From contig PEZT01000028.1 in assembly GCA_002773945.1 (NCBI GenBank), positions 4,034 through 68,033 on the forward strand: 64,000 nucleotides of DNA. The letters are read 5' to 3'. Position numbers and translations under genes: made by a program. This stretch comes from Candidatus Beckwithbacteria bacterium CG10_big_fil_rev_8_21_14_0_10_34_10. GTDB lineage: Bacteria; Patescibacteriota; Microgenomatia; UBA1400. The notes under the pieces are model-generated. The model made no database searches and was not told the origin of the DNA. It was given only the letters and a program-made list of their open reading frames with translations. Below are positions 1,207-63,920 of the stretch, one piece after another (the first letter of the stretch is position 1; the number at the start of each line of letters is the position of its first letter).

Positions 1207-1323
1207 CCCCGGCTGTGAGGTATTTTCGCGTGGCTGAGAAGCCAGACTATCGTCCCCGCTGAGGCGTTTAACTATCCTGTTCGGAATGGAAAGAGTGGTT
1301 CCACCTCGCTTTAACAACCGGGA
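1207..1323 (-). rRNA. rrf: 5S rRNA
   Basis: The reverse complement contains CCATTCCGAACAGGATAGTTAAACGCCTCAGCGGGGACGATAGTCTGG, matching the conserved 5S core. Terminal helix I pairs CCCGGTTGT with ACAGCCGGG. It lies just downstream of the 23S gene on the same strand. Confidence 0.85.
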
Positions 1324-1379
1324 AATATTTAATTTTAATATTAACTCTCTGAACAGTGAATAGAAATCAGACCTTTACG

Positions 1380-4548
<3,169 letters not shown>

Positions 4549-4584
4549 AAAGATCGTTTTTCTATTCACTTTTCAAAGAGCTAG

Positions 4585-4656
4585 TGGACCCAGTCGGGAT
4601 TGAACCGACGACCTTCTCGTTGCAAACGAGACGCGCTTCCACTGCGCCATGGGCCC
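4585..4656 (-). tRNA. tRNA-Ala (anticodon UGC)
   Basis: The reverse complement is GGGCCCATGGCGCAGTGGAAGCGCGTCTCGTTTGCAACGAGAAGGTCGTCGGTTCAATCCCGACTGGGTCCA. It has a cloverleaf with anticodon loop TTTGCAA and the G3:U70 Ala identity pair. It sits in the 16S-23S spacer. Confidence 0.92.
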
Positions 4657-4843
4657 ATATACTAAAAAAGTCTCCCGAAGGAGACCCATTAAACTCATGA
4701 GAAAAAGCCTTAAAAAAACGCCTTTCTAGCCACAAAAAGTTGCCCGGTTATGGCATTGAAAATGTTATGGGCTTTTCTACTCATTAAGTTTAAAAAAACT
4801 CCTTTAAATTGAATTTTAACAGATATACTTTAAGGTGTCAATG

Positions 4844-4917
4844 TGGGCTATCCAGGATTCGAACCTGGGACCTCTGTCTTATCAGGACAGCGCTCTAACC
4901 AACTGAGCTAACAGCCC
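4844..4917 (-). tRNA. tRNA-Ile (anticodon GAU)
   Basis: The reverse complement is GGGCTGTTAGCTCAGTTGGTTAGAGCGCTGTCCTGATAAGACAGAGGTCCCAGGTTCGAATCCTGGATAGCCCA. The anticodon loop is CTGATAA. It is the typical spacer tRNA. Confidence 0.92.
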
Positions 4918-5020
4918 TTTTTGACAATCTTAAATAGTGGTAGGAATTAAAAATGTACTTTTTACCAAGATTACTCTTGGTCTGGAAATCTGATCGTGTA
5001 TCAGAAACCAAATCTCCTAG

Positions 5021-6516
<1,496 letters not shown>

Positions 6517-6593
6517 AAAAAAATTTCCTACCACTACTTAAGTTGTCAATTTAAATTTACTCTCCAAATTTATTCAATTCTAAAAATATTTAG

Positions 6594-6734: not shown

Positions 6735-8129
6735 TTAAAGATCAAACAAAAAAAGTTTAATTTTTGTCAAAATTTGTTGAAAAATATTTACCTTTTTATT
6801 TTTAAAATCAAAGGGTTTAAAAACATAAATGGTTTTTTTTATTTCCCCCATTTTTAATCTATGCTCCGCTGATTGAGTTCCAGTTTTTACTAAAAAATCT
6901 ATTTCTTTTTCTTCATTAGGATATATCAAGTCTCCCTGGCTTAACTTGATTGAAGAAATGTTAAGATAAGGCCTTTCTTGATCAATTAAAAAAGAAAAGT
7001 CTTTGTCTTCACCCATAATCCACTGACCTGTATTTTTGACTTTTATTTTTCCCTGATACTCATATTTAGTCGGTAATATCTCAGCTAATTCAAAACTAGA
7101 TACTTTAAAGCTTTTAATTTGTTCTACCTCACCTTTAACCTTACTGATGCCCAATATTTTTTCATATTGTGGGTAAAAACTACCATCTTTTTTAAAAAAA
7201 GAGAAATAGTCAAAAGGTGGAGCTGGGTGATTTAAAACAAACGGAGTCACTGCTAAAACTTTATCATCAGCCTGCCAGATAGAAAAAGCTTGTTCATAAA
7301 ATACAGCTGTTTTTTCTTGGTTAAAATAGCCTGCGCTTCTTCCTTCTCCCTCTTGATGAGGCCAACCAGTTTCAGTAATAAAAACGCCAAAGTCTTTTTC
7401 TACTCCTAAATTCTTTAAAAAACTTAACTCCCATAAATAGCCTTTAATTGTTCCTCTTCCATTGTCAGTAGGTAAACCAACAAAGCCTTGATTGGGATAA
7501 CTGTGAGAATTCCAAGCATCAAAAAGACTAAAAACATTAGGGTTTTGTAAAATCATTCCCTGTAAAAATTCTTCTTCTTTCATGGTTCCGTTTTTACCAT
7601 CAGCTGATTGATCAAAACCAGCTGGTAAAATATAGAAGTTAGGGCTACTTTGTTTAAATAAAGTAATTAGTTTTTCTGAAACTAAAACATATTCTTGGGG
7701 ATTAATTTCTCCACCCCATTCTTTTTTGTGATTGGGCTCATTAAAAAAAACCACTATCTGTTTTTTAACTGGCCAGTTTAAAGAATTTAAGAACCCCACA
7801 TATTCTCCTAAATTATCAGGGTTAGGTTTAGCCCAATAACTATCTTCCGGGTGAGTAGCTAATCTAATAATAGGAATTAAATGAAGTTTTCGGCAGTTAT
7901 TAAAAAAATCCTGCCATTTATCTTTTTCCAAATCATCGTCTCTTAAAACAATAGTCACATAACCCCAATCACCACCAGTAGAATTAACTAGCTTAGCCAC
8001 TTCTTCAACTTCAGTTGTTTCTAAAATATGGATACCGATTTTGTTATTACTAGCCCAAGCTGGACTTAAAAATAAATTAAGAAAAAGAAAAAGGAATATG
8101 GTTATAATAATCAGCTTTTGTTTTCTCAT
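6735..8129 (-). CDS. Secreted or membrane-anchored glycoside hydrolase, GH-A clan (TIM-barrel)
   Basis: 464 aa. N-terminal signal peptide or membrane anchor. VFFNEPNH is the clan GH-A acid/base NEP motif. FITETGW is the nucleophile TExG-like motif. Confidence 0.6.
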   Translation of the reverse strand: MRKQKLIIITIFLFLFLNLFLSPAWASNNKIGIHILETTEVEEVAKLVNSTGGDWGYVTIVLRDDDLEKDKWQDFFNNCRKLHLIPIIRLATHPEDSYWAKPNPDNLGEYVGFLNSLNWPVKKQIVVFFNEPNHKKEWGGEINPQEYVLVSEKLITLFKQSSPNFYILPAGFDQSADGKNGTMKEEEFLQGMILQNPNVFSLFDAWNSHSYPNQGFVGLPTDNGRGTIKGYLWELSFLKNLGVEKDFGVFITETGWPHQEGEGRSAGYFNQEKTAVFYEQAFSIWQADDKVLAVTPFVLNHPAPPFDYFSFFKKDGSFYPQYEKILGISKVKGEVEQIKSFKVSSFELAEILPTKYEYQGKIKVKNTGQWIMGEDKDFSFLIDQERPYLNISSIKLSQGDLIYPNEEKEIDFLVKTGTQSAEHRLKMGEIKKTIYVFKPFDFKNKKVNIFQQILTKIKLFLFDL

Positions 8130-8182
8130 CAGCCTTCATTATATCTTAAAGCTTTACAGAAACAAGGTATTCTAAGAAAATC

Positions 8183-9598
8183 TTAAGAAGATAATTTAGT
8201 TAGTTTTACTCTTAAAACTTGGTAAGGTTTCAGATTCTGATTTAAAACAATACTTCCGCCTTTAACAGTCACTTGTTTTTCTTCAGGCTGGGAAAAAAGC
8301 TCTTGGATAAACAGTCGATATTGGCCATCTTTTATCCCTCCAAAACTAATATTAAAAGATTCTTCAAAAGGGTTTTGGGCTTGATAATTAGAAAGAATTA
8401 AGATTGTAGTCCGATTATCAAAAACAGCAAAGCCAGTAATCTGGGTCCCCTCACCTAAAACTTCCACTCTGTTACCTTCAAATTCAGCCAACCAATCATA
8501 AAGTAAATACCGAGGTTTTTCTTTGACTCCCCCCTCTGTCAATTCATGAGTTAAAAGACCCCAGGCTTCTTGACCTTGATTAGGTCCATCTTTAACTTCA
8601 AAAGCAAAACAATATTTAGTTTTGTCTAAAAGCTTTCTTAAAATATGAACTGCATGAGAGGCAGCGATTGAACTGGAATAAGCGGTATCTTTTTCTGAAT
8701 TAGGTCCCCATTCAGTCAAAAGCTTTTCTGTATTTTGAAATTTTTTGTATTTAGGTTGACTCTCAATAACATTTATTTGATATACATCATTTAAAAATAC
8801 TTCTGGTAAAAAGCTGTAGCGGTGCCAGGAAACAAAATCTAACCTCAAATTGTTAGCTAAAACATAATCATATAAAAGCCTAATCCAAACCGGATCTAAT
8901 TCAGGAATAGAAGGGCCTCCAATTTTAAAAGGTTTGACTCCCTGAGCCTGCAAAGCTCCTAAAACAGAATATTTATATAATTCTAAATAGTTCTTTTCAC
9001 CATACATTTTCCAACCCCCAAACCATTCTAAAGACGGTTCATTCCAAACCTCATAATATATTTCCTCTGTATCCTTTGAATAGTGTTCAATTGTCTGTCT
9101 AACTAAGTCCTGCCAGTCAGCCCAGTTATTGGGTTTGCCTATCTTGCCCGGACCAACTTCTTCTGGTAGATAAGTTAAAGAGAAAAAGGGTTTAGCTCCA
9201 GTGGCCTTAATATCATCAACTGTTTCATCCAGTTTAGACCAATCAAGATCAAGTTTACCTCCTGACCGACCTTTAACTACACCATAATAATCATCATCAT
9301 AAATATGGTCCAATCTAATATAATCAAGCTGAAGCTTTTTAACTTGGTTCACTGTAGCTTCAATCATTCTCGCTCCTGAAGCTTCTTCTCCTCCTTGAGC
9401 TAGGGCTCGCCAGGTCCGAGGAATAGAACCATAATTGCGTTGAATATTAACAATAATATCCGCTGGTTGAAAAGGTCTGGCTAAATACGTTTCTGGAATT
9501 CTAACTTTTACTTCCTTTTCAATTAAATAAAAAGGGACAAAAAGAAACAGAATAATTAATGTAAAAAAACTAATAATAATTTTTTCTTTATTTATCAT
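8183..9598 (-). CDS. Membrane-anchored glycoside hydrolase, GH-A clan (GH39/GH5-like)
   Basis: 471 aa. N-terminal TM segment. YEVWNEPSLEWF carries the NEP catalytic acid/base. The remainder has a TIM-barrel glycosidase-like pattern. Confidence 0.6.
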   Translation of the reverse strand: MINKEKIIISFFTLIILFLFVPFYLIEKEVKVRIPETYLARPFQPADIIVNIQRNYGSIPRTWRALAQGGEEASGARMIEATVNQVKKLQLDYIRLDHIYDDDYYGVVKGRSGGKLDLDWSKLDETVDDIKATGAKPFFSLTYLPEEVGPGKIGKPNNWADWQDLVRQTIEHYSKDTEEIYYEVWNEPSLEWFGGWKMYGEKNYLELYKYSVLGALQAQGVKPFKIGGPSIPELDPVWIRLLYDYVLANNLRLDFVSWHRYSFLPEVFLNDVYQINVIESQPKYKKFQNTEKLLTEWGPNSEKDTAYSSSIAASHAVHILRKLLDKTKYCFAFEVKDGPNQGQEAWGLLTHELTEGGVKEKPRYLLYDWLAEFEGNRVEVLGEGTQITGFAVFDNRTTILILSNYQAQNPFEESFNISFGGIKDGQYRLFIQELFSQPEEKQVTVKGGSIVLNQNLKPYQVLRVKLTKLSS

Positions 9599-9602
9599 AT
9601 TC

Positions 9603-10178
9603 CTACAGTTTAAATTCCATTTCAGAAACTGCTTCTAAAATATCTTCTCCTTCTATATTTAAAAGATTACAATCCAAAAGGCTTTGCTTAGTAAAATCAA
9701 ATTCCAGTTTACCTTCTCCTTTTTCTAAAACAAAAAAAGAGATTTCTGTTACTTTGAATTTACCTTCAGTTGATTTGGGTCGAATGGAAAAAGAAGCCAC
9801 TCCACCTGAATCTTGCCACTCACCACCAACTAATTGAAGCAAATCAAGGGGATAAAAAACTTTAAGATCTACTTGATTAAGTAACTGATCTGTTTGAACC
9901 CAAATCTCATAAGTTAATTTTTGATTAAACTCACCCTTATATTCTTCAAACCATAATCTTCCACCTTGAGAAAGTTTTTCCTTAATTTCAGGTTCAGGAA
10001 TGTTTTTCAAATCTTTTTTGGCTTGTTCTTCTTGATCAATAACTCTTTGTTTTTGGGTTTCTAAAGCCTTATTTTCTTTTTGATTTAACTGATAAAGTCT
10101 AAAACCAATCCAAGCTGATTGAAGAATAATAATAATTGATAATGGCCAAATAATTAATTGAAGTTTTGTTTTTTCCAC
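9603..10178 (-). CDS. Hypothetical membrane-anchored protein
   Basis: 191 aa ORF with an N-terminal TM helix. No recognisable catalytic motif. It packs tightly into the GH operon. Confidence 0.45.
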   Translation of the reverse strand: MEKTKLQLIIWPLSIIIILQSAWIGFRLYQLNQKENKALETQKQRVIDQEEQAKKDLKNIPEPEIKEKLSQGGRLWFEEYKGEFNQKLTYEIWVQTDQLLNQVDLKVFYPLDLLQLVGGEWQDSGGVASFSIRPKSTEGKFKVTEISFFVLEKGEGKLEFDFTKQSLLDCNLLNIEGEDILEAVSEMEFKL

Positions 10179-10242
10179 TAAATTAATAGTAACTTAAATC
10201 AATTGACTTCTCAAGATCTTAAAGGTTTCATTCAAGGTGGAG

Positions 10243-11262
10243 TTATTTTAATCTTTCTTTAAAAAAATTAAGGTCTCTTTGGACCACTAAATCCCAGGCT
10301 CCATTAAGTTGATGATCAGCGCCCGGATAAGTATAGAAAACAACTTCTTTATCAAAGTCATTAAGATTATTAACCAAATTCTGGCTCCAAATTAAAGGAA
10401 CAAAAATATCCGCTGTTCCCTGGTGAATCTGGATCGGAGCTTCTATCCAATCTAAATATTCATCAAAAGAGTAAAGATCAATATCATAATCTTTTTCAAA
10501 TTCAGCCAAACTTTTTCTAATCCCTTTACCTTTATCATCATATTCATTGGTAAAAAACAAAATGTCATAGGGAAAGAATTGAGAAACTGGCGCCCATAAG
10601 GTAGTCGGGTATTCTCCGCCAGTTATTTCTAAAATACTTAAAGATGATAAGCCGCCGTTACTATGGCCCCAGATAGCGATTTTATCTACCTCAGCCTGAG
10701 GAAATGTTTTAATAGAATTTAAAAGATCAATAATATTAACACTTCTTAAAAACCTGGATTCCCAAATATCATCTGGAGGCATATCAGAACTACCATAGCC
10801 TAAAAAGTCAGGAGCCAGAGTAAGATAACCGTTTTGAGCATAAACTTCAGCTGAAGGCTGAGTCCCCATTCCTGATTGATAAATCTCTAAATCAACATAG
10901 CCTCTAAGCATTAGAATTACTGGAAAAGGTCCCTCTCCAAAAGGAATATTAGCCATCCCACTGATCTTTCTCCCTTCACTTTCGAAGGTAAAAATATAGG
11001 AAGTGAAGTCTGGGGTTTCATTTATTGTTGATTCCAAAGTAATCTCACTAACCTGAGGTTTTCTTTTTTTAAGCCTTTTAAAAGTATATTTATCTAAAGG
11101 TTTTTCTTTTATTTCTTCAGTTTTAGATTTTTTAGCTAATGGGGAAAGAAAAGTAAAAGACTTGTTTTGACTTAAAAGGAAAAATACTAACCCAATAATA
11201 AGAAAAAGGCTTAAAAAAGAAAGAATAACTATTTTTTTTCTAGATAAACTTTCTTTAAACAT
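10243..11262 (-). CDS. Alpha/beta-hydrolase fold esterase/peptidase, membrane-anchored
   Basis: 339 aa. N-terminal TM segment. The GHSNGG nucleophile elbow (GxSxG) and downstream D and H give a catalytic-triad arrangement typical of dienelactone hydrolase and S9-like hydrolases. Confidence 0.65.
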   Translation of the reverse strand: MFKESLSRKKIVILSFLSLFLIIGLVFFLLSQNKSFTFLSPLAKKSKTEEIKEKPLDKYTFKRLKKRKPQVSEITLESTINETPDFTSYIFTFESEGRKISGMANIPFGEGPFPVILMLRGYVDLEIYQSGMGTQPSAEVYAQNGYLTLAPDFLGYGSSDMPPDDIWESRFLRSVNIIDLLNSIKTFPQAEVDKIAIWGHSNGGLSSLSILEITGGEYPTTLWAPVSQFFPYDILFFTNEYDDKGKGIRKSLAEFEKDYDIDLYSFDEYLDWIEAPIQIHQGTADIFVPLIWSQNLVNNLNDFDKEVVFYTYPGADHQLNGAWDLVVQRDLNFFKERLK

Positions 11263-11265
11263 AAT

Positions 11266-11937
11266 TTATTCAATAATTTCTACCGGCTCAACTACATCAG
11301 CGCCAGCCGTATTAAAATCCTCCAGCCACTCATTAAATTGAGCTTCTGATTCACCTTCTAAAGGAATGAGCTTAAAAGAATTAAGAATCCTATCATAGAT
11401 TTGATTCCAATAATCTAATTCTTTATCTGACTGTTTATCGACCTGATAAAGAACCTGGTCCCAATCAATAAAAGCAGTTACTTCTCTTCCTTCTCCTAAA
11501 GAAACTTTTTGGGCTGAGACTGAAGCAATTTGGGTTTCTAAAGCGTTTCCCTGCTTAACTAAAGAATCTTTCTGAAACCACTCATTAATATCTTGATATA
11601 AGCTATCAGTACAAATAATAGTAATGCTACCTTCTCTCTCTTTTGATTTAAGCTCTAAAAAGGCATAATTAGTCTCATCTTCCGAATGAACATCAATTTC
11701 TACTTCTTTGGGGTATTCAAAAGAAAAACCAGCTGGGTCTTCCCAAACTCCCCAAGTAAAGTTAAAAACTTCTTTTTTGTTTTTTAAACCTAAAGGAGAA
11801 CGCTTTTCAGCTGGAAAAAGTTTTTGAAAAACTTCATCTTTATAAGCTAGAAATATACTAACAAGAATCCCAAAAGTTCCCAAAATCCCTAAAGCCCAGA
11901 AAATATAATCTTTTCTTTCTTTTTTCTTTTTCTTCAT
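11266..11937 (-). CDS. Hypothetical membrane-anchored protein
   Basis: 223 aa. Lys-rich N-terminus followed by a TM helix, then an acidic C-terminal domain. Confidence 0.4.
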   Translation of the reverse strand: MKKKKKERKDYIFWALGILGTFGILVSIFLAYKDEVFQKLFPAEKRSPLGLKNKKEVFNFTWGVWEDPAGFSFEYPKEVEIDVHSEDETNYAFLELKSKEREGSITIICTDSLYQDINEWFQKDSLVKQGNALETQIASVSAQKVSLGEGREVTAFIDWDQVLYQVDKQSDKELDYWNQIYDRILNSFKLIPLEGESEAQFNEWLEDFNTAGADVVEPVEIIE

Positions 11938-21097: not shown

Positions 21098-21814
21098 TTA
21101 TTTCGCTAACTCTTGATCAATTGTGGTCTTAAAGTTTTCAAATGGTTGAGCTCCAACCAACTTCTGGCCATTAATGAAAAAAGTGGGCGTGCCTGAAACA
21201 CCCATTTTTTGACCCAGAGATACATCATCCTTAATTGCTTGAATATAGGTTCCGTTATTTAAACAAGTTTGAAAATTAGCTTGATTTAAACCCAGTGTTC
21301 CAGCATAACCCACTAGGGTTTCTTTAGGACTATCGAGATTGGACCAAGTTTCTTGATCTTCAAAAAGCTTATCATGATAGCTCCAATAATCACCTTGTTC
21401 TCCGGCACACCTGGCTGCCTCTGATGTTATTTGAGCATTTGGATGAAAAGGTAAAGGATAATCTCTAAAAACATACCTTATCTCTTCTCCATATTCATCT
21501 AAAATCCTTTTATAAGCACTATCAACATATCTTTTACAAAAAGGGCACTGATATTCGGAAAATTCAACTATTGTCACCTTGGCCCCATCAAGACCCTTAA
21601 CAGCCGCTGCTTCAGCGACTATTTCTGCCTGATCCTCAACTCCCAAAACCTGCGGTTCTTCTGGGGCAGCTTCAGGCGCCTGAACCATTTCTTCTGCCTT
21701 TTGCTCTTCTTTTTCGCTTTCTAGATTTCTAACTTTATTCCAAAGGCTCCCAGAAACAAAAGCGGCAAAGATTAAAGCGGCGATTAATATGGGAGTGATT
21801 TTATTAGATTCCAT
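21098..21814 (-). CDS. DsbA-family thiol:disulfide oxidoreductase, membrane-anchored
   Basis: 238 aa. N-terminal TM segment. EYQCPFCKRY is the thioredoxin-fold CxxC active site. Confidence 0.75.
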   Translation of the reverse strand: MESNKITPILIAALIFAAFVSGSLWNKVRNLESEKEEQKAEEMVQAPEAAPEEPQVLGVEDQAEIVAEAAAVKGLDGAKVTIVEFSEYQCPFCKRYVDSAYKRILDEYGEEIRYVFRDYPLPFHPNAQITSEAARCAGEQGDYWSYHDKLFEDQETWSNLDSPKETLVGYAGTLGLNQANFQTCLNNGTYIQAIKDDVSLGQKMGVSGTPTFFINGQKLVGAQPFENFKTTIDQELAK

Positions 21815-43794: not shown

Positions 43795-44445
43795 TTAACC
43801 TATTAATAGACTGAAAATATTAAGGGAGGCATGAGCCACTATAGGCGCTATAATTCCTTTAGTTTTCCAAAAAACGTAGCCATCAATTAAACCTAATCCT
43901 ATGGCCAAACTTAGATGCTTTCCTAAACCTAAAAATGTTTGGCTTTGGTCAAAAATAAGAATCGGAAGATGAATAACAAAAAACAATATCCCGACAATAA
44001 TATTTGATCCTAATTTTGAATTAATGACTTTATTAATCCGGGTCATTAAAAAACCCCTAAAAACAATTTCTTCGGAAACAGCGGTAAAAAAAGCGCTTAG
44101 GCTATATATAAGAAAAGCGATTAAACCTAAATTTAAAGGATTAAAACTGATAGGCTTACCTTTAATTACCAAGGAGAGAAGATATTCAAAGAGAATGAAA
44201 ATACTTATTCCTAAACCTATTAGAATATTTTTCCAAAACTTTAAAAATACTATTCCTAGGCTTTTTAATTGTTTTTTTTCAATTCTCTTAACAATTAAAA
44301 ATATTGGTAAAAGCCAAAGAATCGGTTTAAAAATAAGCTCGTCCCAAGGCTCGCTTAAATTGCTTAAGTACCGGTATATCCCCCAGATTGAAAAAAGGTA
44401 GAAAAAATAAACTAAGACTAATAGGTTTTTTGTCTTTTTTTCCAT
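43795..44445 (-). CDS. CPBP-family (CAAX) intramembrane metalloprotease
   Basis: 216 aa. Motif 1 SEEIVFRGF (EExxxR), FFVIH, and HASLN motif 3. Confidence 0.7.
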   Translation of the reverse strand: MEKKTKNLLVLVYFFYLFSIWGIYRYLSNLSEPWDELIFKPILWLLPIFLIVKRIEKKQLKSLGIVFLKFWKNILIGLGISIFILFEYLLSLVIKGKPISFNPLNLGLIAFLIYSLSAFFTAVSEEIVFRGFLMTRINKVINSKLGSNIIVGILFFVIHLPILIFDQSQTFLGLGKHLSLAIGLGLIDGYVFWKTKGIIAPIVAHASLNIFSLLIG

Positions 44446-45307: not shown

Positions 45308-45991
45308 TTACACTATTTTCTTAAAAACAGGAGAAAGAAGAAAAACTAAACCTAAAACCAAAAGAATAATAGTGGGATAGGAAACTCCAGTCACTGGAAT
45401 TGGCGGTGATCCATCAGTTCCCCCTACTCCAGGACTTGAACTTGGATTTGGACTAGAGCTAGCACTTGGGCTTGGACTAACATCAGTGGCTGATAAAGTA
45501 TAACTGCCATTAATATTTGAAGTACAAACAATAATATCTAATGGAGTCGGATCATTAATATTAGAGTCTGTACTACTACCTTCAGTACAGTCAAAAGTCA
45601 TGGTGGCTGTTCCTGAAGTAGCTTTGGATTTAACTGTTAAGGTCGCTAAAGTACCGGTTCCGGTTTTGCTCTCCAGCATCGAACCTAAAGAAAGATTAGC
45701 ATTAATAACTACTTGGCCATTCGAATTATAAATATTGTAGGAAACATCATCAAAAAAGTCTCCTTCAGCTACCGTTGATACCTCTAAAAGGCTGGCATCA
45801 TAATTAATGACTGCTTTAGCGCTTTTAGCCGCTTGGCCGCCAGTATCAATATTAACTCCAACACTCGTTCCAGCTCCACTTATTATCCCAGAAGCCGGCG
45901 AAAGTTCTAAGTGAGGATCAGCTGCCAAGGCCTTTTTAGGAACAAAAAGAAAAAAAGAAAGTAATAAAAAAATAAGGCAGGTTTTTTTCAT
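45308..45991 (-). CDS. Secreted cohesin-like domain protein with Ser/Pro linker and sortase-like C-terminal sorting signal
   Basis: 227 aa. Signal peptide. The beta-rich domain has the VINYDASLLEV cohesin-like segment. The PSPSASSSPNPSSSP linker is followed by IPVTG, a hydrophobic helix and a KKIV tail, which is an LPxTG-like pattern. Confidence 0.5.
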   Translation of the reverse strand: MKKTCLIFLLLSFFLFVPKKALAADPHLELSPASGIISGAGTSVGVNIDTGGQAAKSAKAVINYDASLLEVSTVAEGDFFDDVSYNIYNSNGQVVINANLSLGSMLESKTGTGTLATLTVKSKATSGTATMTFDCTEGSSTDSNINDPTPLDIIVCTSNINGSYTLSATDVSPSPSASSSPNPSSSPGVGGTDGSPPIPVTGVSYPTIILLVLGLVFLLSPVFKKIV

Positions 45992-46005
45992 ATATTTAAT
46001 ATAAC

Positions 46006-46599
46006 TTAGTTTATTTTAATAGTCAAAGGAGCCGCTTCCTTTAATAAATCTTGACCACCATATCCAGCAATATGAGTTTTATCTTCATCAAAAATAAACT
46101 CAGCCGAACCTTTTTCTTTGGCCATCACTGATAAACTAACCACTATTTCCTGATTTAATTTTTCATTTTTATTAACATCTTGTAAGGCAATTACTCTTAC
46201 CTCTTCCTTATCTAAATCAATCTTTTTTTGGGGATAAAGTTTAAAATAACTGTTTTCTTTGATTTCTTTTATTTCAATAATTTTGGAATCAAAACCTAAA
46301 ACAAACTCAACTCCATCAACTTCTTCTCCTTGACCATCAACTAAAACTTGCAGCTCAAAAGTCTCTCCCTGATCGTAACTTTTTTTATTGGTTTTAAGGA
46401 AAAGGGTAAGATTATTTTCAGCCTTAATTTCTCCTAAATCAAATTCTCTTGGTGAAGGTTCAACTTCCTTAGTAATTGTCTCTATTTCTTTATCTAACCT
46501 GGAAATTTCCTTTTCTGTCCACTGACGGAAAATAAAATAGCCGAATAAAGCTAGTCCTAACATTAAAAAAATAGAGACTAAAGGAACATATTTCTTCAT
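46006..46599 (-). CDS. Membrane-anchored protein with cohesin-like beta domain
   Basis: 197 aa. N-terminal TM segment. VEFVLGFDSKIIEIKEI resembles the cohesin f-x-l-x-YD...L motif. Confidence 0.4.
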   Translation of the reverse strand: MKKYVPLVSIFLMLGLALFGYFIFRQWTEKEISRLDKEIETITKEVEPSPREFDLGEIKAENNLTLFLKTNKKSYDQGETFELQVLVDGQGEEVDGVEFVLGFDSKIIEIKEIKENSYFKLYPQKKIDLDKEEVRVIALQDVNKNEKLNQEIVVSLSVMAKEKGSAEFIFDEDKTHIAGYGGQDLLKEAAPLTIKIN

Positions 46600-46608
46600 T
46601 TTTCTCCT

Positions 46609-47934
46609 TTATTCATCATCTGGTCTTTCTGACAAAGTTTTGTATAAAAGATCAATATCAGTACTGTCTGTCACACTGTCAAAATTAGCATCAGCCCAAT
46701 GACAGGTATCATCATAAAGCTGATCTCCCATTTTAGCATTAGCTTCTACGCAGGATTTAATAACTGAATAGTCGGTTACTCCCACACTTCCATTCTGATC
46801 AATATCCCCAAATTCTAAAGGCCGGTTGCTAAAATCAAATTGAAAATTGTCTAAATCTATATCAATCCCTGTTCCCCTAGGACAAGTGGTTTCTTTTCCT
46901 TGATTATCAACACAAAATATAATCTGACGGTGAGAAGGTCCTTTAAGTTTAACAATATAAGTGCCATCAGTTAAAACAGGTGGTGGAGAAGAACTTGTAT
47001 AAACATAACCCAATGTTCCTTCTATATTGTAAGGTGAGGGACAACTATTATCTCCAGGGATATTGAAATGATCATAAACCTGGCCACCAGCATAACAGCG
47101 ACGCAAGGGTACAGTTCCTTCAATTTGATTAGGATATATATAAACAACAAAGTCTTCCATTTGATAAGGTGAAGGGCAACTATCACCAGTTTTGGAAAAA
47201 TGGTCTTGGACCTGACCACCAGCATAACATCTATATAAAGGAACTGTTCCTGTTTGCTGGCTGATAGAAGCATAAAATAAGGTTCCTTCCCAATTATAGC
47301 CTTCTAAACCTTCGCAATCTCCCTGAGTAGTAATAAAATGGTCTTTTTGGGGATTTGCTCCTCCCCGATAACACCTTCCTACTTTAACTAAACCTGAGGG
47401 ATTAGGACTAACTGGAGCTGAAGACGGAGAAGGAGAAGGGCTGGAGTTAACCCCGCATGGTCCAAGAGTTTTAGTATTAGTTAACTGGGTATCATTACCT
47501 TGGCCAATATTTACTCCAATAGCAGTAATCTGATAAGTTCCTCCATCTTTTAAACTTTCGGGTGTCTGAATACTAAAACCATGATTGCAGTTCCCCCCGC
47601 AAGAATCACAAACCCCCTGTTCTCTTGTTTTATCTGCTTTAACTGTAGCTATTAATTGATTCCCAGCATAAATTTCAACATCAATTGTTTTTTTATAACC
47701 AGTCTTATCACAAGCCCAACCAGCTATCTTATTACAATCAGCCCCATCTAAAAATCCTTTAGGACTTTTAGACGAAGATGCTGATTGAGAATATATTTCG
47801 GCCTGTTTAACTGTTTTACTTTCTAAAGTAATAATACCACCTATAAAAAATAGAAGGCTTAAGGTACCTAGTATTAAAGCACTATAAAATGGCAGGTGGG
47901 TATTTTTTATGTTTATCTTCATTTTATTCACCAT
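46609..47934 (-). CDS. Membrane-anchored surface protein with DUF5648-like (LYRCY...DHF) repeats and C-terminal dockerin-like Ca-binding repeats
   Basis: 441 aa. There are two copies of TVPL(Y/R)RCYAGGQV(Q/Y)DHF. The C-terminal DIDQNGSVGVTDYSVIK and ADANFDSVTDSTDIDLLYK resemble the dockerin DxNxDGxVxxxD pair. Confidence 0.45.
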   Translation of the reverse strand: MVNKMKINIKNTHLPFYSALILGTLSLLFFIGGIITLESKTVKQAEIYSQSASSSKSPKGFLDGADCNKIAGWACDKTGYKKTIDVEIYAGNQLIATVKADKTREQGVCDSCGGNCNHGFSIQTPESLKDGGTYQITAIGVNIGQGNDTQLTNTKTLGPCGVNSSPSPSPSSAPVSPNPSGLVKVGRCYRGGANPQKDHFITTQGDCEGLEGYNWEGTLFYASISQQTGTVPLYRCYAGGQVQDHFSKTGDSCPSPYQMEDFVVYIYPNQIEGTVPLRRCYAGGQVYDHFNIPGDNSCPSPYNIEGTLGYVYTSSSPPPVLTDGTYIVKLKGPSHRQIIFCVDNQGKETTCPRGTGIDIDLDNFQFDFSNRPLEFGDIDQNGSVGVTDYSVIKSCVEANAKMGDQLYDDTCHWADANFDSVTDSTDIDLLYKTLSERPDDE

Positions 47935-49763
47935 TCAAAATTTGCTTTCCAAATATTTCCAGCTTCATCATAAATAAAATCAATGTAGTCTGAAAAAGCT
48001 GTTTCTCCATCTGAGGCTCTCTCAATTGTCACTAAAATCTTTTTTTGCCTATTATCCTCAGGTAAATTTATAATGTTGTTATTGGCTGGCACCCCATCAA
48101 AGTTAACCTTAAGATCTAAAGTTCTCACACCAGTATAATAATTATTAGCACATTTTAAAGTATCTTTATTCCAACATTTAGTTTCTCCACAATCACAATC
48201 AAAAACATCTCCTACAGGGCAGGCAATGGCAATAAGGCTGGGCCAAACAAGCTCACAACTATCACCACAACTATTATTAAAACCTGTCCAGGTGCCATTA
48301 GGATCAGCTTCACAAGCTGATTGATCTGCCGAAGGAGATGGAGAAGGACTTACCAAGGGGCTTGGTGAAGGGCTAGGCGATGGAGTTAATGGTGGATTAT
48401 CAACACAAGTTGAACCATCCCAACACTTACTAGAACCACAATCACAACCATAAGTCATGGCTGAAGAACAATTTTGGCTTGGATCAGCCGCATAATAACA
48501 GCTATCAAGACAAGAATTTGACATCATTCTCCAGGTTCCACCCTCAGCTATACAAACTTCTTCTGGAGTAGAAGATCCAGATTGACAAACCCCTTGAACA
48601 CATTCTTCTCCGGATGAAACATCACAAACATTGCCGCAAACTCCACAATGTTCTTCACTCCAATATGTATTAGTCTCACAACCATCTGTCCAATCATTAT
48701 TACAATTTCCCTGAAGAGAATCACAAACACAAAGGTTATTCTCGCAAGTCGCACTAGATCCACAATCATTACTAGTTTCGCAAGATCCCGGCATAGATTC
48801 AACTATTTTTACCATCCCAACATCAGATATCCACTCACTAGCAGAATTATTACTCACATTAATCTGATTATTACCATTAATGTCCATTGTAAAAATTTCA
48901 TAGTTTGGGCTAATAAGTTTAGTAAAAATAATTTTACTTTCATCTGTAGAGCAAGCTCCAGCGTAACCCCTATTGCCAGATATATTTACCAAACCGCTAC
49001 CATCATTTTTATTCATTGTATAAACACCATTGTTTTCGTCAAAAGGAGTAAATAAAACATAATTTCCGCAAACAAAGGCATTATAATCATCACCATCTGT
49101 TCCTCCAATCCATTCTAGGGTTGATTCATCTCCTGGATCATTAGGATCAATTCGCCAAATATCATTTCCAGAACTTACAGATTTATATGAAGTAAAATAT
49201 ATTTTATTATCACTTGACCAATGAGAATCAGTTGCTTGAAGCTTAGTTAATAATACAGAATTGGTTGTATTATTAAGATCAAGTATAGAAAGTTCGCCTT
49301 GAGCACTCGTATAAACTATTTTATTACCATCTGGTGAAAAATCAGCCTTTAAACTATTGCTAAAATTTAAGTCTATTAGTTTTTCCTCATTGCTTCCGTT
49401 AATATCCATTATCCATAAATCCCAACTATTTTGACTATTCTGCCTATTAAAAACAATTGTTTCTCCATCAGGTGACAAATGTGCTTCTTTATCAGCTAGA
49501 CTGTTATCCGTCAATTGTTTTACATCACTACCATCAAGGTTCATCATATAAATTTCATCATCGCCATCTCTATTAGAACTAAATATAATTTTTTCCTCTT
49601 GAGTTTCACTGAGAAAAGCTTCTGGTTGTCTTTCTATTAAGCCTTTTTTACTAAATATAGCTAAACCAAAAAAGATAAATAGAGCTAAAGCCCCCAAAAG
49701 GGTTGAAGAAAAATAAGGAAGGTGGGACCATCTTATGTTTGGCCTTTTTGTGTTTTCCATCAC
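47928..49763 (-). CDS. Membrane-anchored surface protein: TolB-like beta-propeller (PD40 repeats) + Cys-rich modules + PS-repeat linkers
   Basis: 611 aa. It has repeated SPDG...IVF / DLW-type PD40 segments, followed by a Cys-rich region (CxxCxNxC patterns) separated by PSPSPSPSP linkers. Confidence 0.5.
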   Translation of the reverse strand: MMENTKRPNIRWSHLPYFSSTLLGALALFIFFGLAIFSKKGLIERQPEAFLSETQEEKIIFSSNRDGDDEIYMMNLDGSDVKQLTDNSLADKEAHLSPDGETIVFNRQNSQNSWDLWIMDINGSNEEKLIDLNFSNSLKADFSPDGNKIVYTSAQGELSILDLNNTTNSVLLTKLQATDSHWSSDNKIYFTSYKSVSSGNDIWRIDPNDPGDESTLEWIGGTDGDDYNAFVCGNYVLFTPFDENNGVYTMNKNDGSGLVNISGNRGYAGACSTDESKIIFTKLISPNYEIFTMDINGNNQINVSNNSASEWISDVGMVKIVESMPGSCETSNDCGSSATCENNLCVCDSLQGNCNNDWTDGCETNTYWSEEHCGVCGNVCDVSSGEECVQGVCQSGSSTPEEVCIAEGGTWRMMSNSCLDSCYYAADPSQNCSSAMTYGCDCGSSKCWDGSTCVDNPPLTPSPSPSPSPLVSPSPSPSADQSACEADPNGTWTGFNNSCGDSCELVWPSLIAIACPVGDVFDCDCGETKCWNKDTLKCANNYYTGVRTLDLKVNFDGVPANNNIINLPEDNRQKKILVTIERASDGETAFSDYIDFIYDEAGNIWKANFEW

Positions 49764-61556: not shown

Positions 61557-63920
61557 TTATAGTTTAGATCTTTGGCCTATTTCTGCTTCAATAATTTCTT
61601 TGTCTTTACCAAATTTTAATCTAGATAGTTGCTTAATCATTTCAGCTACTTTAGTACTTCTAAGTTTTTTAATCTGGGTCATATCTTTAGAAAGATCCAT
61701 GGAAAAAGCTGGGACTGGTTCATTGTTAACTATGGTTTTAATAAAAACATTATATTTTTCAACATTAATAAGGTCTGTTTCAGAAAAAGTTGGTTGAAAT
61801 TCATGTTGAAGATAGTTAGCATCAGTCACCCCAACTCTAAAAGAAACTAGAGAACCAACATTACCAAAAACAGCGTTTTTAACCTCTTCATCTACCTGGC
61901 CGATAAATTGGTTAGCAACAGTTAAATTCAGTTTATATTTTCTCGCCTCAGAAAGAATTTGGGCAAAATCAGGAGTGGCGAAGTTTTGGAACTCATCAAC
62001 ATAAAGATAAAAATCTCGTCTTTTTTCCTCAGGTATATCCTGTCGACTCATAGCGGCAATTAAAATTTTAGGTACCAATACTAACCCTAAAAAGTTAGAA
62101 TTCTCTTCTCCAATCCTGCCTTTAGCTAAATTGATTAAAAGAATTTTACCTTCATCCATTACTTTTCTAAAATCAAAGGCTGATTTAGACTGACCAATAA
62201 TATTTCTCATCATTTTATTGGTAACAAAACGGCCAAATTTGGAAACAATATAGTCTAAAACTTCACTTTTATGAAATTCGTTCGTTTGAGCAATTTGATC
62301 AGTCCAATATCTTCTCACCATTGGATCTTTAACTTTAGGCAATAATTCCTGAACATATTTAGAATCGGTTAAAACTCTAACTATTTCTACAAAGGTACTG
62401 CCCGGCTCACTCATAACTGTTAACATTGCATTCCTAATAGCATGTTCAAACCTTGGACCAATGATTCCGGTCTTATGAGGATCATAAAGTTTATACATTA
62501 AACCAATAATTGAGTTAGCAATAAAATGCTGTTCTTCTTCCCCTCTGGCCTCTAACATATTAAGACCCATTGGCCTATCAGTATCTGAAGGATTAAAATA
62601 AATAACATCTTCCGCTCTTTCCGGAGGAATTAATTCTAGTATTTTTTCCACTGTATCATGAGGATCAATGAAACAAACCCCTTTGCCCTGACGGATATCC
62701 TGTAAAATCATATCAGTCATAAATTCAGATTTACCCACCCCGGTTTTTCCAATAATATAAACATGCTTTCTTCTATCTTCATCGGAAATAAAAACCGGCC
62801 TAGTCACCCCTCGATAAACACTTTTACCTAAATACAAACCTTTTTGGGGAATCAAGGCTGGAGCGGGGGCTGATTTAGCCGCTAACCAATGAATATGGGG
62901 CGTTTCGACTGATTTATTGGGAAAGTGAAAAATACTAGCCAATTCTTCACTATTCAAAACGCTTTTTTTATGCAAAATTGGAAGATAACGGTAAATAAAA
63001 TTAATCATAAAGGCTTTTTTAAACCAAGTATATTTCTTTTTAGTAAAACCATTTAAGCCTGAAGTAAATTGAGAAAATGAACCAACAATATTAGCTAAAT
63101 AGCTTCTAGCCTTTTCCTTATCTCCGGCAGTAACAACTATTCTTATAATCGTGTTAAATCCAGGTTTAGAACATTTACTCTCAATTTGTTCATATTGTTT
63201 AGGATCAACATTATATTTGGCTTTTTCCGGATCCGCTTCAGATTTCTTAGTTTTAGAAATATATGATTTGCCCGCCTGTTGCCATTTACTATTAGCTGGA
63301 GAAATTAAAACTTGAATTACCACTCCTTCATTATCTTGCATTTTGGCTAAAGATGAAGTTAAAGAGCTTAAGGGATCTGTAGGTAAATCTTTATAAACTT
63401 TAATTGGATAAAGACTGTTAGATTTTAGTCTTAAACTGGCAAACGCGACCTTACCTTCCTTAGAAAAAATATTATATTCATCAACTTCTTTAACTTCTGC
63501 TCCTGGATAAGCACCATGAATCTGCTTTTCTACCATATCTCTTAAATGATTAGGAACAGCCACATAAAAACGAATATCCTCTCTTTTAGCCACAATTTCA
63601 AAACTCAAATGATCCTCAGATTTAAGTTTGTCTCGAAAGCGAGTTTTTTTTATTGAGTAAAGAGAGGCAAACATTTGTTCAGCGGCATCAATTTTAATCT
63701 CGTTTCCCCGAGGAATAGCTACTTGAAGAAGGGAAAAATTCAAGGATTCTTCCTCTCTTTTGTTATGTTTTAACCAAAGGACTAAAAGATAAACTAAGCC
63801 ACCAATCCCCCCCAAACTAAAACCAGCTACCACTAGAAGGACTAAAAAGTAATTTAATAAACTAGTCAAATTACTTATGTTATTGGGACTATTTATTGGG
63901 CTACTTAACGCTTCCGCCAT
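61557..63920 (-). CDS. Membrane-anchored conjugation/T4SS-type AAA_10 ATPase (VirB4/TrbE/TraC-like; alternatively a VirD4/TraG-like coupling protein)
   Basis: 787 aa. N-terminal TM helices. Walker A IIGKTGVGKSEFM lies ~400 aa from the N-terminus. Walker B YLYVDEFQNF. The EARKYKLNLTVANQFIGQ motif is typical of T4SS ATPases. Confidence 0.55.
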   Translation of the reverse strand: MAEALSSPINSPNNISNLTSLLNYFLVLLVVAGFSLGGIGGLVYLLVLWLKHNKREEESLNFSLLQVAIPRGNEIKIDAAEQMFASLYSIKKTRFRDKLKSEDHLSFEIVAKREDIRFYVAVPNHLRDMVEKQIHGAYPGAEVKEVDEYNIFSKEGKVAFASLRLKSNSLYPIKVYKDLPTDPLSSLTSSLAKMQDNEGVVIQVLISPANSKWQQAGKSYISKTKKSEADPEKAKYNVDPKQYEQIESKCSKPGFNTIIRIVVTAGDKEKARSYLANIVGSFSQFTSGLNGFTKKKYTWFKKAFMINFIYRYLPILHKKSVLNSEELASIFHFPNKSVETPHIHWLAAKSAPAPALIPQKGLYLGKSVYRGVTRPVFISDEDRRKHVYIIGKTGVGKSEFMTDMILQDIRQGKGVCFIDPHDTVEKILELIPPERAEDVIYFNPSDTDRPMGLNMLEARGEEEQHFIANSIIGLMYKLYDPHKTGIIGPRFEHAIRNAMLTVMSEPGSTFVEIVRVLTDSKYVQELLPKVKDPMVRRYWTDQIAQTNEFHKSEVLDYIVSKFGRFVTNKMMRNIIGQSKSAFDFRKVMDEGKILLINLAKGRIGEENSNFLGLVLVPKILIAAMSRQDIPEEKRRDFYLYVDEFQNFATPDFAQILSEARKYKLNLTVANQFIGQVDEEVKNAVFGNVGSLVSFRVGVTDANYLQHEFQPTFSETDLINVEKYNVFIKTIVNNEPVPAFSMDLSKDMTQIKKLRSTKVAEMIKQLSRLKFGKDKEIIEAEIGQRSKL

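Follow-up and report, generated by a model that had tools for sequence, protein, structure and literature searches.

A locus of four genes, here called A to D, is found in a 64-kb stretch of DNA (the window, contig PEZT01000028.1) from a Candidatus Beckwithbacteria bacterium (Microgenomates, candidate phyla radiation or CPR), binned from a CG10 metagenome. We consider it probable that these genes form a non-cellulosomal cohesin-dockerin docking cassette resembling ScaE of Ruminococcus flavefaciens and OlpC of Clostridium thermocellum. C and D carry one cohesin each, B ends in a dockerin, and A ends in one half of the module that precedes the dockerin in related proteins. The four consecutive minus-strand open reading frames (ORFs) lie exactly where the preliminary description of this DNA had placed them.

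47928-49763, minus strand: gene A, ORF of 611 amino acids
46609-47934, minus strand: gene B, ORF of 441 amino acids
46006-46599, minus strand: gene C, ORF of 197 amino acids
45308-45991, minus strand: gene D, ORF of 227 amino acids
49771-49800, minus strand: promoter-like site TTGACA-18-TATAGT, 11/12 to consensus, immediately upstream of the A start codon

The ORFs abut each other, with a 7-nucleotide overlap between A and B and gaps of 9 nucleotides between B and C and 14 nucleotides between C and D. No convincing terminator was found between the four genes. The promoter-like site upstream of A is a consensus match only, in a region that holds 33 such sites versus 23 +/- 5.4 in shuffles. The common direction of A to D carries no weight because almost all genes of the window share the minus strand; the genes belong together because their synteny is kept in other genomes, not because of orientation. 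All four encode envelope proteins, as already proposed in the preliminary description; A, B and C have N-terminal anchors, and D has a signal peptide and a C-terminal sorting signal. To be noted, minus-strand genes run without interruption for about 39 kb (12600-51700), and the GC skew is uniformly negative over the whole window. A strong strand asymmetry of like kind was reported for another Microgenomates genome (PMC7143001).

Two of the four proteins had been suspected of cohesin-like domains, and this is borne out by the Pfam search for both and by the structure prediction for D. Pfam Cohesin (PF00963) matches D with 33.4 bits and C with 26.0 bits, each above the gathering threshold (GA) of 24.1. 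D is built from a signal peptide (site between ALA and AD), a single cohesin, a Ser/Pro linker and a sortase-type sorting signal. Its hydrophobic segments are the signal peptide and a second one at the C-terminus. In C, an N-terminal anchor is followed by the cohesin.

45488-45922, minus strand: cohesin domain of D, residues 24-168, with an AlphaFold2 pLDDT (predicted local distance difference test) mostly >90
45311-45400, minus strand: C-terminal sorting signal of D (IPVTG at 45386-45400, hydrophobic helix at 45323-45385, KKIV at 45311-45322)
46528-46590, minus strand: anchor of C, residues 4-24, its sole hydrophobic segment, N-terminal
46009-46413, minus strand: cohesin of C, about residues 63-197, from Pfam Cohesin

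The AlphaFold2 model of D, calculated with 39 homologues in the alignment, has a pLDDT of 87 and a predicted TM-score (pTM) of 0.71. In a Foldseek search of the PDB with this model the best 50 matches are all cohesins. OlpC (4dh2_A) comes first with an E-value of 2.3e-9, and the Archaeoglobus cohesin 2xdh, ScaE (2zf9) and the Clostridium perfringens module 2jh2 are among the matches. The target-normalised TM-score from Foldseek is about 0.6-0.8 for most single-domain cohesin chains. The model thus predicts for D the nine-strand beta-sandwich (jelly roll) of a cohesin; this fold evidence covers D only, and C is assigned by profile. An hhalign probability of 94.7% for C against the D-family profile indicates that C is homologous to the D family. 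C has no Cys and mature D has two.

B combines an N-terminal anchor, a Cys-containing Ig-like domain, a Ser/Pro linker, DUF5648 repeats, the half-module X2 and a dockerin.

47824-47898, minus strand: N-terminal hydrophobic anchor of B, residues 13-37
47065-47382, minus strand: DUF5648 region of B, about residues 185-290, three [R/Y]RCY...DHF repeats
46813-46971, minus strand: half-module X2 of B, residues 322-374, ...KGPSHRQIIFC...
46612-46812, minus strand: dockerin of B, residues 375-441, two EF-hand-like Ca loops
46771-46806, minus strand: Ca loop 1 of B, residues 377-388 (12 residues), DIDQNGSVGVTD
46657-46692, minus strand: Ca loop 2 of B, residues 415-426 (12 residues), DANFDSVTDSTD

Residues 189-290 match Pfam DUF5648 (PF18885) with 36.5 bits versus a GA of 25, and the LYRCY...DHF repeats noticed earlier are recovered here as three copies. 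The two Ca-binding repeats that the preliminary description had seen in the tail can be read directly: both DIDQNGSVGVTD and DANFDSVTDSTD have Asp or Asn at positions 1, 3, 5 and 12, as in dockerins, and a helix is predicted behind each loop in a low-confidence model of the tail. Word-index searches returned one protein for the 122-residue tail and seven for full-length B. The family was then defined by an exhaustive HMMER search of the last 122 residues against 1.84 billion cluster representatives. With it 133 representatives match at E <= 1e-3, most of them over the whole 120 residues. The X2-dockerin dyad is mostly found at the extreme C-terminus of proteins of roughly 100 to 1100 amino acids, and 78 of the 100 relatives scanned match Dockerin_1 at E <= 1e-3. 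Against the PDB, a profile of 37 relatives has solved dockerins as its best 33 matches (top E 1.1e-13). The alignment spans both Ca loops, and EF-hand proteins rank only below the dockerins. The family profile and the direct reading of the loops thus indicate that B ends in a two-loop dockerin.

A is the largest protein of the locus. An N-terminal membrane anchor is followed by a PD40/TolB-like beta-propeller, Cys-rich modules, PSPS linkers and the half-module X1 at the C-terminus.

49653-49724, minus strand: N-terminal hydrophobic anchor of A (HLPYFSS...), residues 14-37 by hydropathy scan, resembling the N-terminus of B
48843-49628, minus strand: PD40/DUF5050 beta-propeller region of A, about residues 46-307, Pfam coordinates
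48129-48785, minus strand: Cys-rich modules of A with PSPS linkers between them, about residues 327-545, by direct reading
47931-48122, minus strand: half-module X1 of A (...FDGVPANNN...), residues 548-611

Pfam PD40 matches with 39.3 bits versus a GA of 20.9, and DUF5050 and DPPIV_N match as well. The TolB model TIGR02800 reaches 85.9 bits versus a cut-off of 343, and this match is limited to the C-terminal propeller blades. Being partial and below threshold, it rules out A as TolB of a Tol-Pal system, and A is therefore a PD40-propeller protein. Of the earlier wording, the propeller, the Cys-rich modules and the PSPS linkers stand, and the likeness to TolB does not reach the level of an assignment. 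Homologous Cys-rich modules occur in three related loci of other genomes (L005, L009 and L011 in our numbering).

In relatives a module of about 125 residues stands ahead of the dockerin; it consists of X1 (...F-x-G-V-P-A-N-N-N...) and then X2 (...K-G-P-x-H-R-Q-I-x-F-C...). In the window this X module is split: X1 ends A, and X2 stands in B directly ahead of the dockerin. The end of A aligns with positions 1-58 of the 125-position X1-X2 profile with an hhalign probability of 97.2%. The split is shared by L003/L010; in L005, L009, L011 and the proteins P0062-P0064 the module is contiguous. No match to it was found among PDB sequences at E <= 10. L005 encodes a single protein of 815 amino acids with the architecture of A (anchor, PD40 propeller, Cys modules, X1) that runs on into X2 and a dockerin. 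We conclude that A and B derive from one type of cargo, because the X module is split here and continuous in this fusion. The N-terminal motif HLP[FY][FY]S..LLG is common to both proteins. Through its C-terminal X1 half-module and the fusion of A to the tail of B in one relative, A belongs to the cassette.

The strongest argument that these modules may work together is their conserved linkage. The order of one or more X-dockerin proteins, a C-like gene (N-terminal anchor and cohesin) and a D-like gene (signal peptide, cohesin and sorting signal) is kept in 11 loci, where the identity of D falls to as low as 30%. The closer set (D 57-68% identical) comprises the window, L003/L010/L022, L005, L008, L009, L011, L020 and L021; the distant set (D 30-37%) comprises L013, L014 and L015. 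Where upstream sequence is available, the C-like gene lies immediately ahead of the D-like gene in 15 of 18 loci; L006/L028 and L027 are the exceptions. Between loci the passenger part of the dockerin protein changes (PD40 propeller, Cys-rich modules, tandem repeats, fn3/PKD, TIG, extra cohesin) while the C-terminal X-dockerin tag and the two cohesin genes stay constant. In GCA_042571875.1 a second X-dockerin protein, P0063, which also carries a cohesin, is encoded elsewhere in the genome. More than one client per genome is therefore possible.

The position of the cassette adds to this. Two kinds of genomic site are found. In some genomes the whole cassette, or a D-like gene alone, is inserted in the rRNA locus.

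L005:5223-15168, L009:1-17558 and L011:1-7079: whole cassette within the rRNA locus, same strand, between 16S and the spacer tRNAs/23S/5S
L006:8293-18775 and L028:8175-18657: D-like gene alone between 16S and tRNAs/23S
L025:2-2489: D-like gene directly before tRNA-tRNA-23S, with the 16S side off the contig
L027:1412-4473: D-like gene directly before tRNA-tRNA-23S
Window 1207-6522, for comparison: compact rRNA operon
Window 6735-11937, minus strand, directly upstream of 16S: cluster of a 464-residue secreted protein, a GH39-like protein (75.5 bits), a 191-residue N-terminally anchored protein, an S9/alpha-beta hydrolase and a PsbP-like protein

In the window the cassette lies 39 kb away from the rRNA operon, with recF on one side and a Carb_kinase gene on the other, and the same holds for L003/L010/L022, L020 and L021. 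The upstream neighbours of the rRNA operon are nevertheless the same in the window and L005 (464-residue protein, GH39-like protein and 191-residue protein), and a cluster equivalent to window 6735-11937 neighbours the cassette in L005, L006/L028, L009 and L015. Since it occupies two sites in different lineages, the cassette has moved as a single block, and this gives independent support for the cassette as a functional unit. The grouping claimed in the preliminary description is thereby borne out in one respect and narrowed in another: in the 11 loci the gene for the dockerin protein goes with both cohesin genes, and these three genes, rather than all four abutting ORFs, make up the conserved core. 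Every testable part of that description came out favourably, and as a whole it is supported. Between their two spacer tRNAs, L005 and L011 carry a conserved hairpin and a promoter-like site whose -10 is extended. To be noted, the metagenome-assembled genomes of L008, L009 and L010, which show the CPR-type cassette, rRNA and neighbours, are titled 'Candidatus Bathyarchaeia archaeon' or 'uncultured Pseudomonadales bacterium'; these contigs have probably been mislabelled or placed in the wrong bin.

The C-terminus of D (residues 198-227) consists of IPVTG, 21 hydrophobic residues and KKIV, with the Ser/Pro linker ahead of it. The LPxTG-like signal noted there earlier is thus present. It was followed through 39 homologues, which are 29-69% identical to D. 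All keep the Gly of the motif and nearly all the Pro (one homologue reads LAKSG), and the linker varies freely. IPVTG, VPVTG, LPVAG, LPESG, LPETG and LPQTG are found at this place, giving the pattern [ILVM]P-x-[TAS]-G followed by a helix. Judged from the alignment, this is the pattern of a sortase substrate and is under strong constraint. Sortase genes are found near two D-like genes. In L013 (D 30% identical) a protein with 81.9 bits to Pfam Sortase and the motif TLMTC is encoded on the opposite strand, overlapping the D-like gene at its 3' end. A sortase of 77.5 bits is encoded in L011 (UBA1400, D 57% identical), 7.7 kb downstream of the D-like gene, and is directly followed by a DUF11 protein that ends in LPESG, a helix and KKK (L011:12306-12905 and L011:11345-12172). 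These two genes look like a sortase-substrate pair, with an LPESG variant that some D homologues share. The sortase family is found almost throughout Microgenomates (Méheust et al., PMC6744442), and one complete Microgenomates genome has a sortase gene (PMC7143001).

Several observations weigh against a docking cassette with a sortase-linked cohesin. B alone scores 22.5 bits (E 1.3e-4) with Pfam Dockerin_1 (PF00404), 0.4 bits short of the GA of 22.9; the Pfam assignment foreseen in the preliminary description is carried by the relatives of B and narrowly missed by B itself. The AlphaFold2 model of the B tail, made from 5 sequences only, is poor (pLDDT 47.5), and in a fold search with it the nearest PDB matches are dockerins at a best E of 0.27, which is not significant. 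In L006/L028 and L027 the D-like gene has no adjoining C or X-dockerin genes; an IS-type transposase fragment lies upstream of it in L027. A, B and C have one long N-terminal hydrophobic segment each and no obvious cleavage site, so that all three are probably membrane-anchored at the N-terminus. The cargo proteins A and B are then probably not freely secreted, unlike cellulosomal enzymes, and docking may not be needed for their retention. For the sorting of D, no sortase was found in the 64-kb window by motif scan, by phmmer with a CPR sortase or by a two-sequence hidden Markov model. D was matched by none of the curated models of C-terminal sorting signals (LPXTG, PEP-CTERM and others) at E <= 1. 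The basic tail behind the helix is absent from about half of the D homologues.

Part of this evidence would suit modules that are real but unpaired. In that case the cohesin-like domains would be beta-sandwiches with a structural or a glycan-binding role, and the dockerin-like tail would be Ca-stabilised and bind, for example, the host surface. Many orphan dockerins are assumed to bind something other than a cohesin. The solitary D-like genes agree with this explanation, as does the location of P0063 far from any C/D pair. In addition, SEML1_0315 of the Saccharibacterium Southlakia epibionticum is an essential dockerin-domain envelope protein for which adhesion to host glycans, or their degradation, was proposed, and the paper is silent on cohesin (PMC10633639). 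It is harder to explain in this way why a dockerin gene and two cohesin genes are adjacent in 11 loci, to 30% D identity, and were relocated together. Furthermore, 9 of the 100 scanned X-dockerin relatives also carry a cohesin, like adaptor scaffoldins, and the closest structural matches of D are type I cohesins that bind dockerins. We therefore regard unpaired modules as unlikely, though as the most serious competitor of the docking cassette.

D may also not be a sortase substrate. Its C-terminal helix would then be a plain membrane anchor, or another enzyme would process it, such as the CPBP/Rce1-like protease encoded close by, by analogy to myxosortase.

43795-44445, minus strand: CPBP/Rce1-like intramembrane protease, two genes downstream of D

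The findings on the window sortase, the anchor models and the basic tails given above all speak for this. The order D, Carb_kinase, CPBP is kept in the recF-flanked loci (window, L003/L010/L022, L008, L018, L020, L021 and L026), and the CPBP protein matches the myxosortase models weakly. The best figure, 33.6 bits with Mrt_core, is however far under the cut-off of 100 bits, and the CPBP gene is not beside the cassette in L005, L009, L011 and L013-L015. We keep the protease as a minor rival only, because its myxosortase matches are below threshold and its adjacency is limited to the recF-flanked loci. More generally, a non-sortase fate of D has to be set against the sortase pattern of its tail, with LPESG, LPETG and LPQTG among the homologues, and against the sortases beside or near the D-like genes of L013 and L011, the latter with an adjoining LPESG substrate. 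Sorting of D by something other than a sortase is therefore a good deal less likely than its sorting by one.

A true minimal cellulosome for polysaccharide degradation is very improbable. In its favour, the cassette of L005, L009 and L015 lies next to a GH39-like gene cluster, which the window has at 6735-11937, and P0063 is flanked by GH5 and GH3 genes. But none of A to D has a catalytic domain, the GH39-like protein of the window matched the GH39 family only and gave no dockerin hit, and among the window ORFs the X-dockerin profile matched B alone. C and D have one cohesin each and there is no multi-cohesin scaffoldin, so that A to D are no cellulosome in the sense of a multi-cohesin scaffoldin with dockerin-tagged enzymes. 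The cargo consists of PD40 propeller, DUF5648, Big_2, fn3, PKD and beta-helix modules. In the 100 scanned X-dockerin relatives Big_2, beta-helix, fn3, PD40 and similar families dominate, and for the majority of passengers Pfam gives no match. No glycoside hydrolase is among the 25 commonest Pfam families, and a carbohydrate-binding module is found in 1 of the 100. Such a repertoire of binding and repeat modules points to adhesion or recognition and away from the degradation of polysaccharides, in line with the attachment role that had been put forward in place of cellulolysis. Hardly credible at all, and rejected on the architecture of D and its gene context, is D as a sortase-polymerised pilin or part of the CPR Pam pilus: D has a sortase-type signal, and Pam pilins are also nine-strand beta-sandwiches and occur in Microgenomatia (bioRxiv 10.64898/2026.03.03.709456), but D is single-domain and lacks the C-terminal truncated Ig domain and linker strand required for Pam assembly, the Lys of its AKSAKA motif is lost in distant homologues, no chaperone-like genes or ATP-synthase neighbourhood were seen, and its top structural matches are all cohesins.

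A comparison of the docking cassette with known systems shows that ScaE is the closest analogue in logic. The architecture of ScaE, a signal peptide with one cohesin and a sortase signal of the LPXTG kind, is that of D, and the partners of ScaE dock via a dyad of X module and dockerin, as the B tail is built. ScaE receives the X-module/dockerin dyads of ScaB, CttA and a cysteine peptidase, some partners being without a glycoside hydrolase domain (PMC12484212). There are also differences. D is structurally nearer to type I cohesins (E 2e-9) than to ScaE 2zf9 (E 1e-5), and for the X module no relative in sequence could be detected in the PDB. Beside D, a second cohesin, C, is encoded that is anchored in the membrane. 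The cargo is itself membrane-anchored, and neither scaffoldin nor enzymes are found. In structure, the closest system is OlpC, the best match of D. OlpC and OlpA have one type I cohesin each on the cell surface and bind single dockerin-bearing proteins directly, without a scaffoldin. They are held by SLH modules and their clients are cellulosomal enzymes, whereas D has a sortase-type signal and C a membrane helix. Cohesin or dockerin modules without a cellulosome, as here, are known from Archaeoglobus fulgidus (2xdh) and Clostridium perfringens (2jh2), both of which match D structurally. The CPR case differs from them by its fixed three-gene cassette, its two differently anchored cohesins and its lineage-specific X1-X2 module. 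By description, SEML1_0315 is like B a dockerin-bearing envelope protein of a Patescibacterium, but no cohesin partner or anchoring route was described for it. That paper (PMC10633639) was the only mention of a Patescibacterium dockerin protein found in our literature search, and the full-text search found no description of a cohesin-dockerin cassette in CPR/Patescibacteria. The domains themselves are not new, because NCBI already names some of these proteins 'cohesin domain-containing' or 'dockerin type I domain-containing'.

From the domains and their linkage we infer Ca-dependent binding, a partner cohesin, processing by a sortase and a biological role, which would fit together as follows. 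D would be exported via its signal peptide, which is cleaved, and a housekeeping sortase would probably cut it between Thr and Gly of IPVTG and link it to the cell wall. Wall-linked D would then present one cohesin on a Ser/Pro stalk, a ScaE-like architecture, and C would hold the second, related cohesin at the membrane through its N-terminal anchor. B would be a large surface protein with a membrane-anchored N-terminus, whose dockerin Ca loops plug into C and/or D. Other X-dockerin proteins of the same genome would likewise bind C and/or D in a Ca-dependent manner. A, a PD40-propeller, Cys-rich surface protein ending in X1, would be of the same cargo lineage as B. Binding-type modules (propeller, Ig-like, DUF5648) would in this way be held in a set place in the envelope. 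They would most likely serve to make contact with a host cell or a glycan surface, and not to break down polymers.

To be noted, a membrane-anchored DsbA-like thioredoxin is encoded at 21098-21814 on the minus strand (Thioredoxin_4, 96.7 bits), and it is a plausible oxidase for the extracytoplasmic Cys residues of A (30) and B (16). Membrane-anchored DsbA-like oxidoreductases were noted as widespread in CPR (Méheust et al., PMC6744442).

Other features of the window and of the related loci are reported here for completeness. The window protein at 9603-10178 was considered as a third cohesin and rejected: BLASTP against C is not significant and Pfam finds nothing. The orthologues of this 191-residue protein in L005 and L006 weakly match the D profile (E 8e-9 and 5e-8), and the window copy does not match. 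A group I intron (Rfam RF00028, 57.8 bits) is found inside the 23S rRNA gene of the window at 1781-2057 on the minus strand, and LAGLIDADG-type ORFs lie within or beside the 23S genes of L005 and L006. At 61557-63920, minus strand, a membrane protein of 787 amino acids is encoded with weak matches to coupling proteins of the TrwB/TraG/VirD4 type. It is a possible component of the type IV secretion system that has been reported from Patescibacteria.

A wider reading can be put forward as a speculation that we rate as doubtful. The cassette would be a general envelope docking station of Microgenomates-type CPR, with wall and membrane cohesins holding X-dockerin proteins (133 clusters with very varied passengers) for host contact. 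Ancestrally placed between 16S and 23S, and so very highly expressed, it would be as important for epibiotic life as the essential dockerin protein of Southlakia. As a corollary, the split X module may reassemble non-covalently, bringing the dockerin-less A to the same anchor.

How ultrasmall CPR bacteria build up their envelope and attach to hosts is poorly understood, and the majority of their surface proteins carry no annotation. The cassette offers a testable wiring diagram for them: a membrane anchor, a probable wall anchor and a recognisable C-terminal X-dockerin tag. This tag can be used for listing the displayed surface proteins in any Microgenomates genome from sequence alone. The one genetic result to date for the group is the essential dockerin-domain envelope protein of Southlakia (PMC10633639), and the cassette suggests what proteins of this kind may plug into. 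For the cohesin-dockerin field, it would be a compact natural system without a role in biomass degradation.

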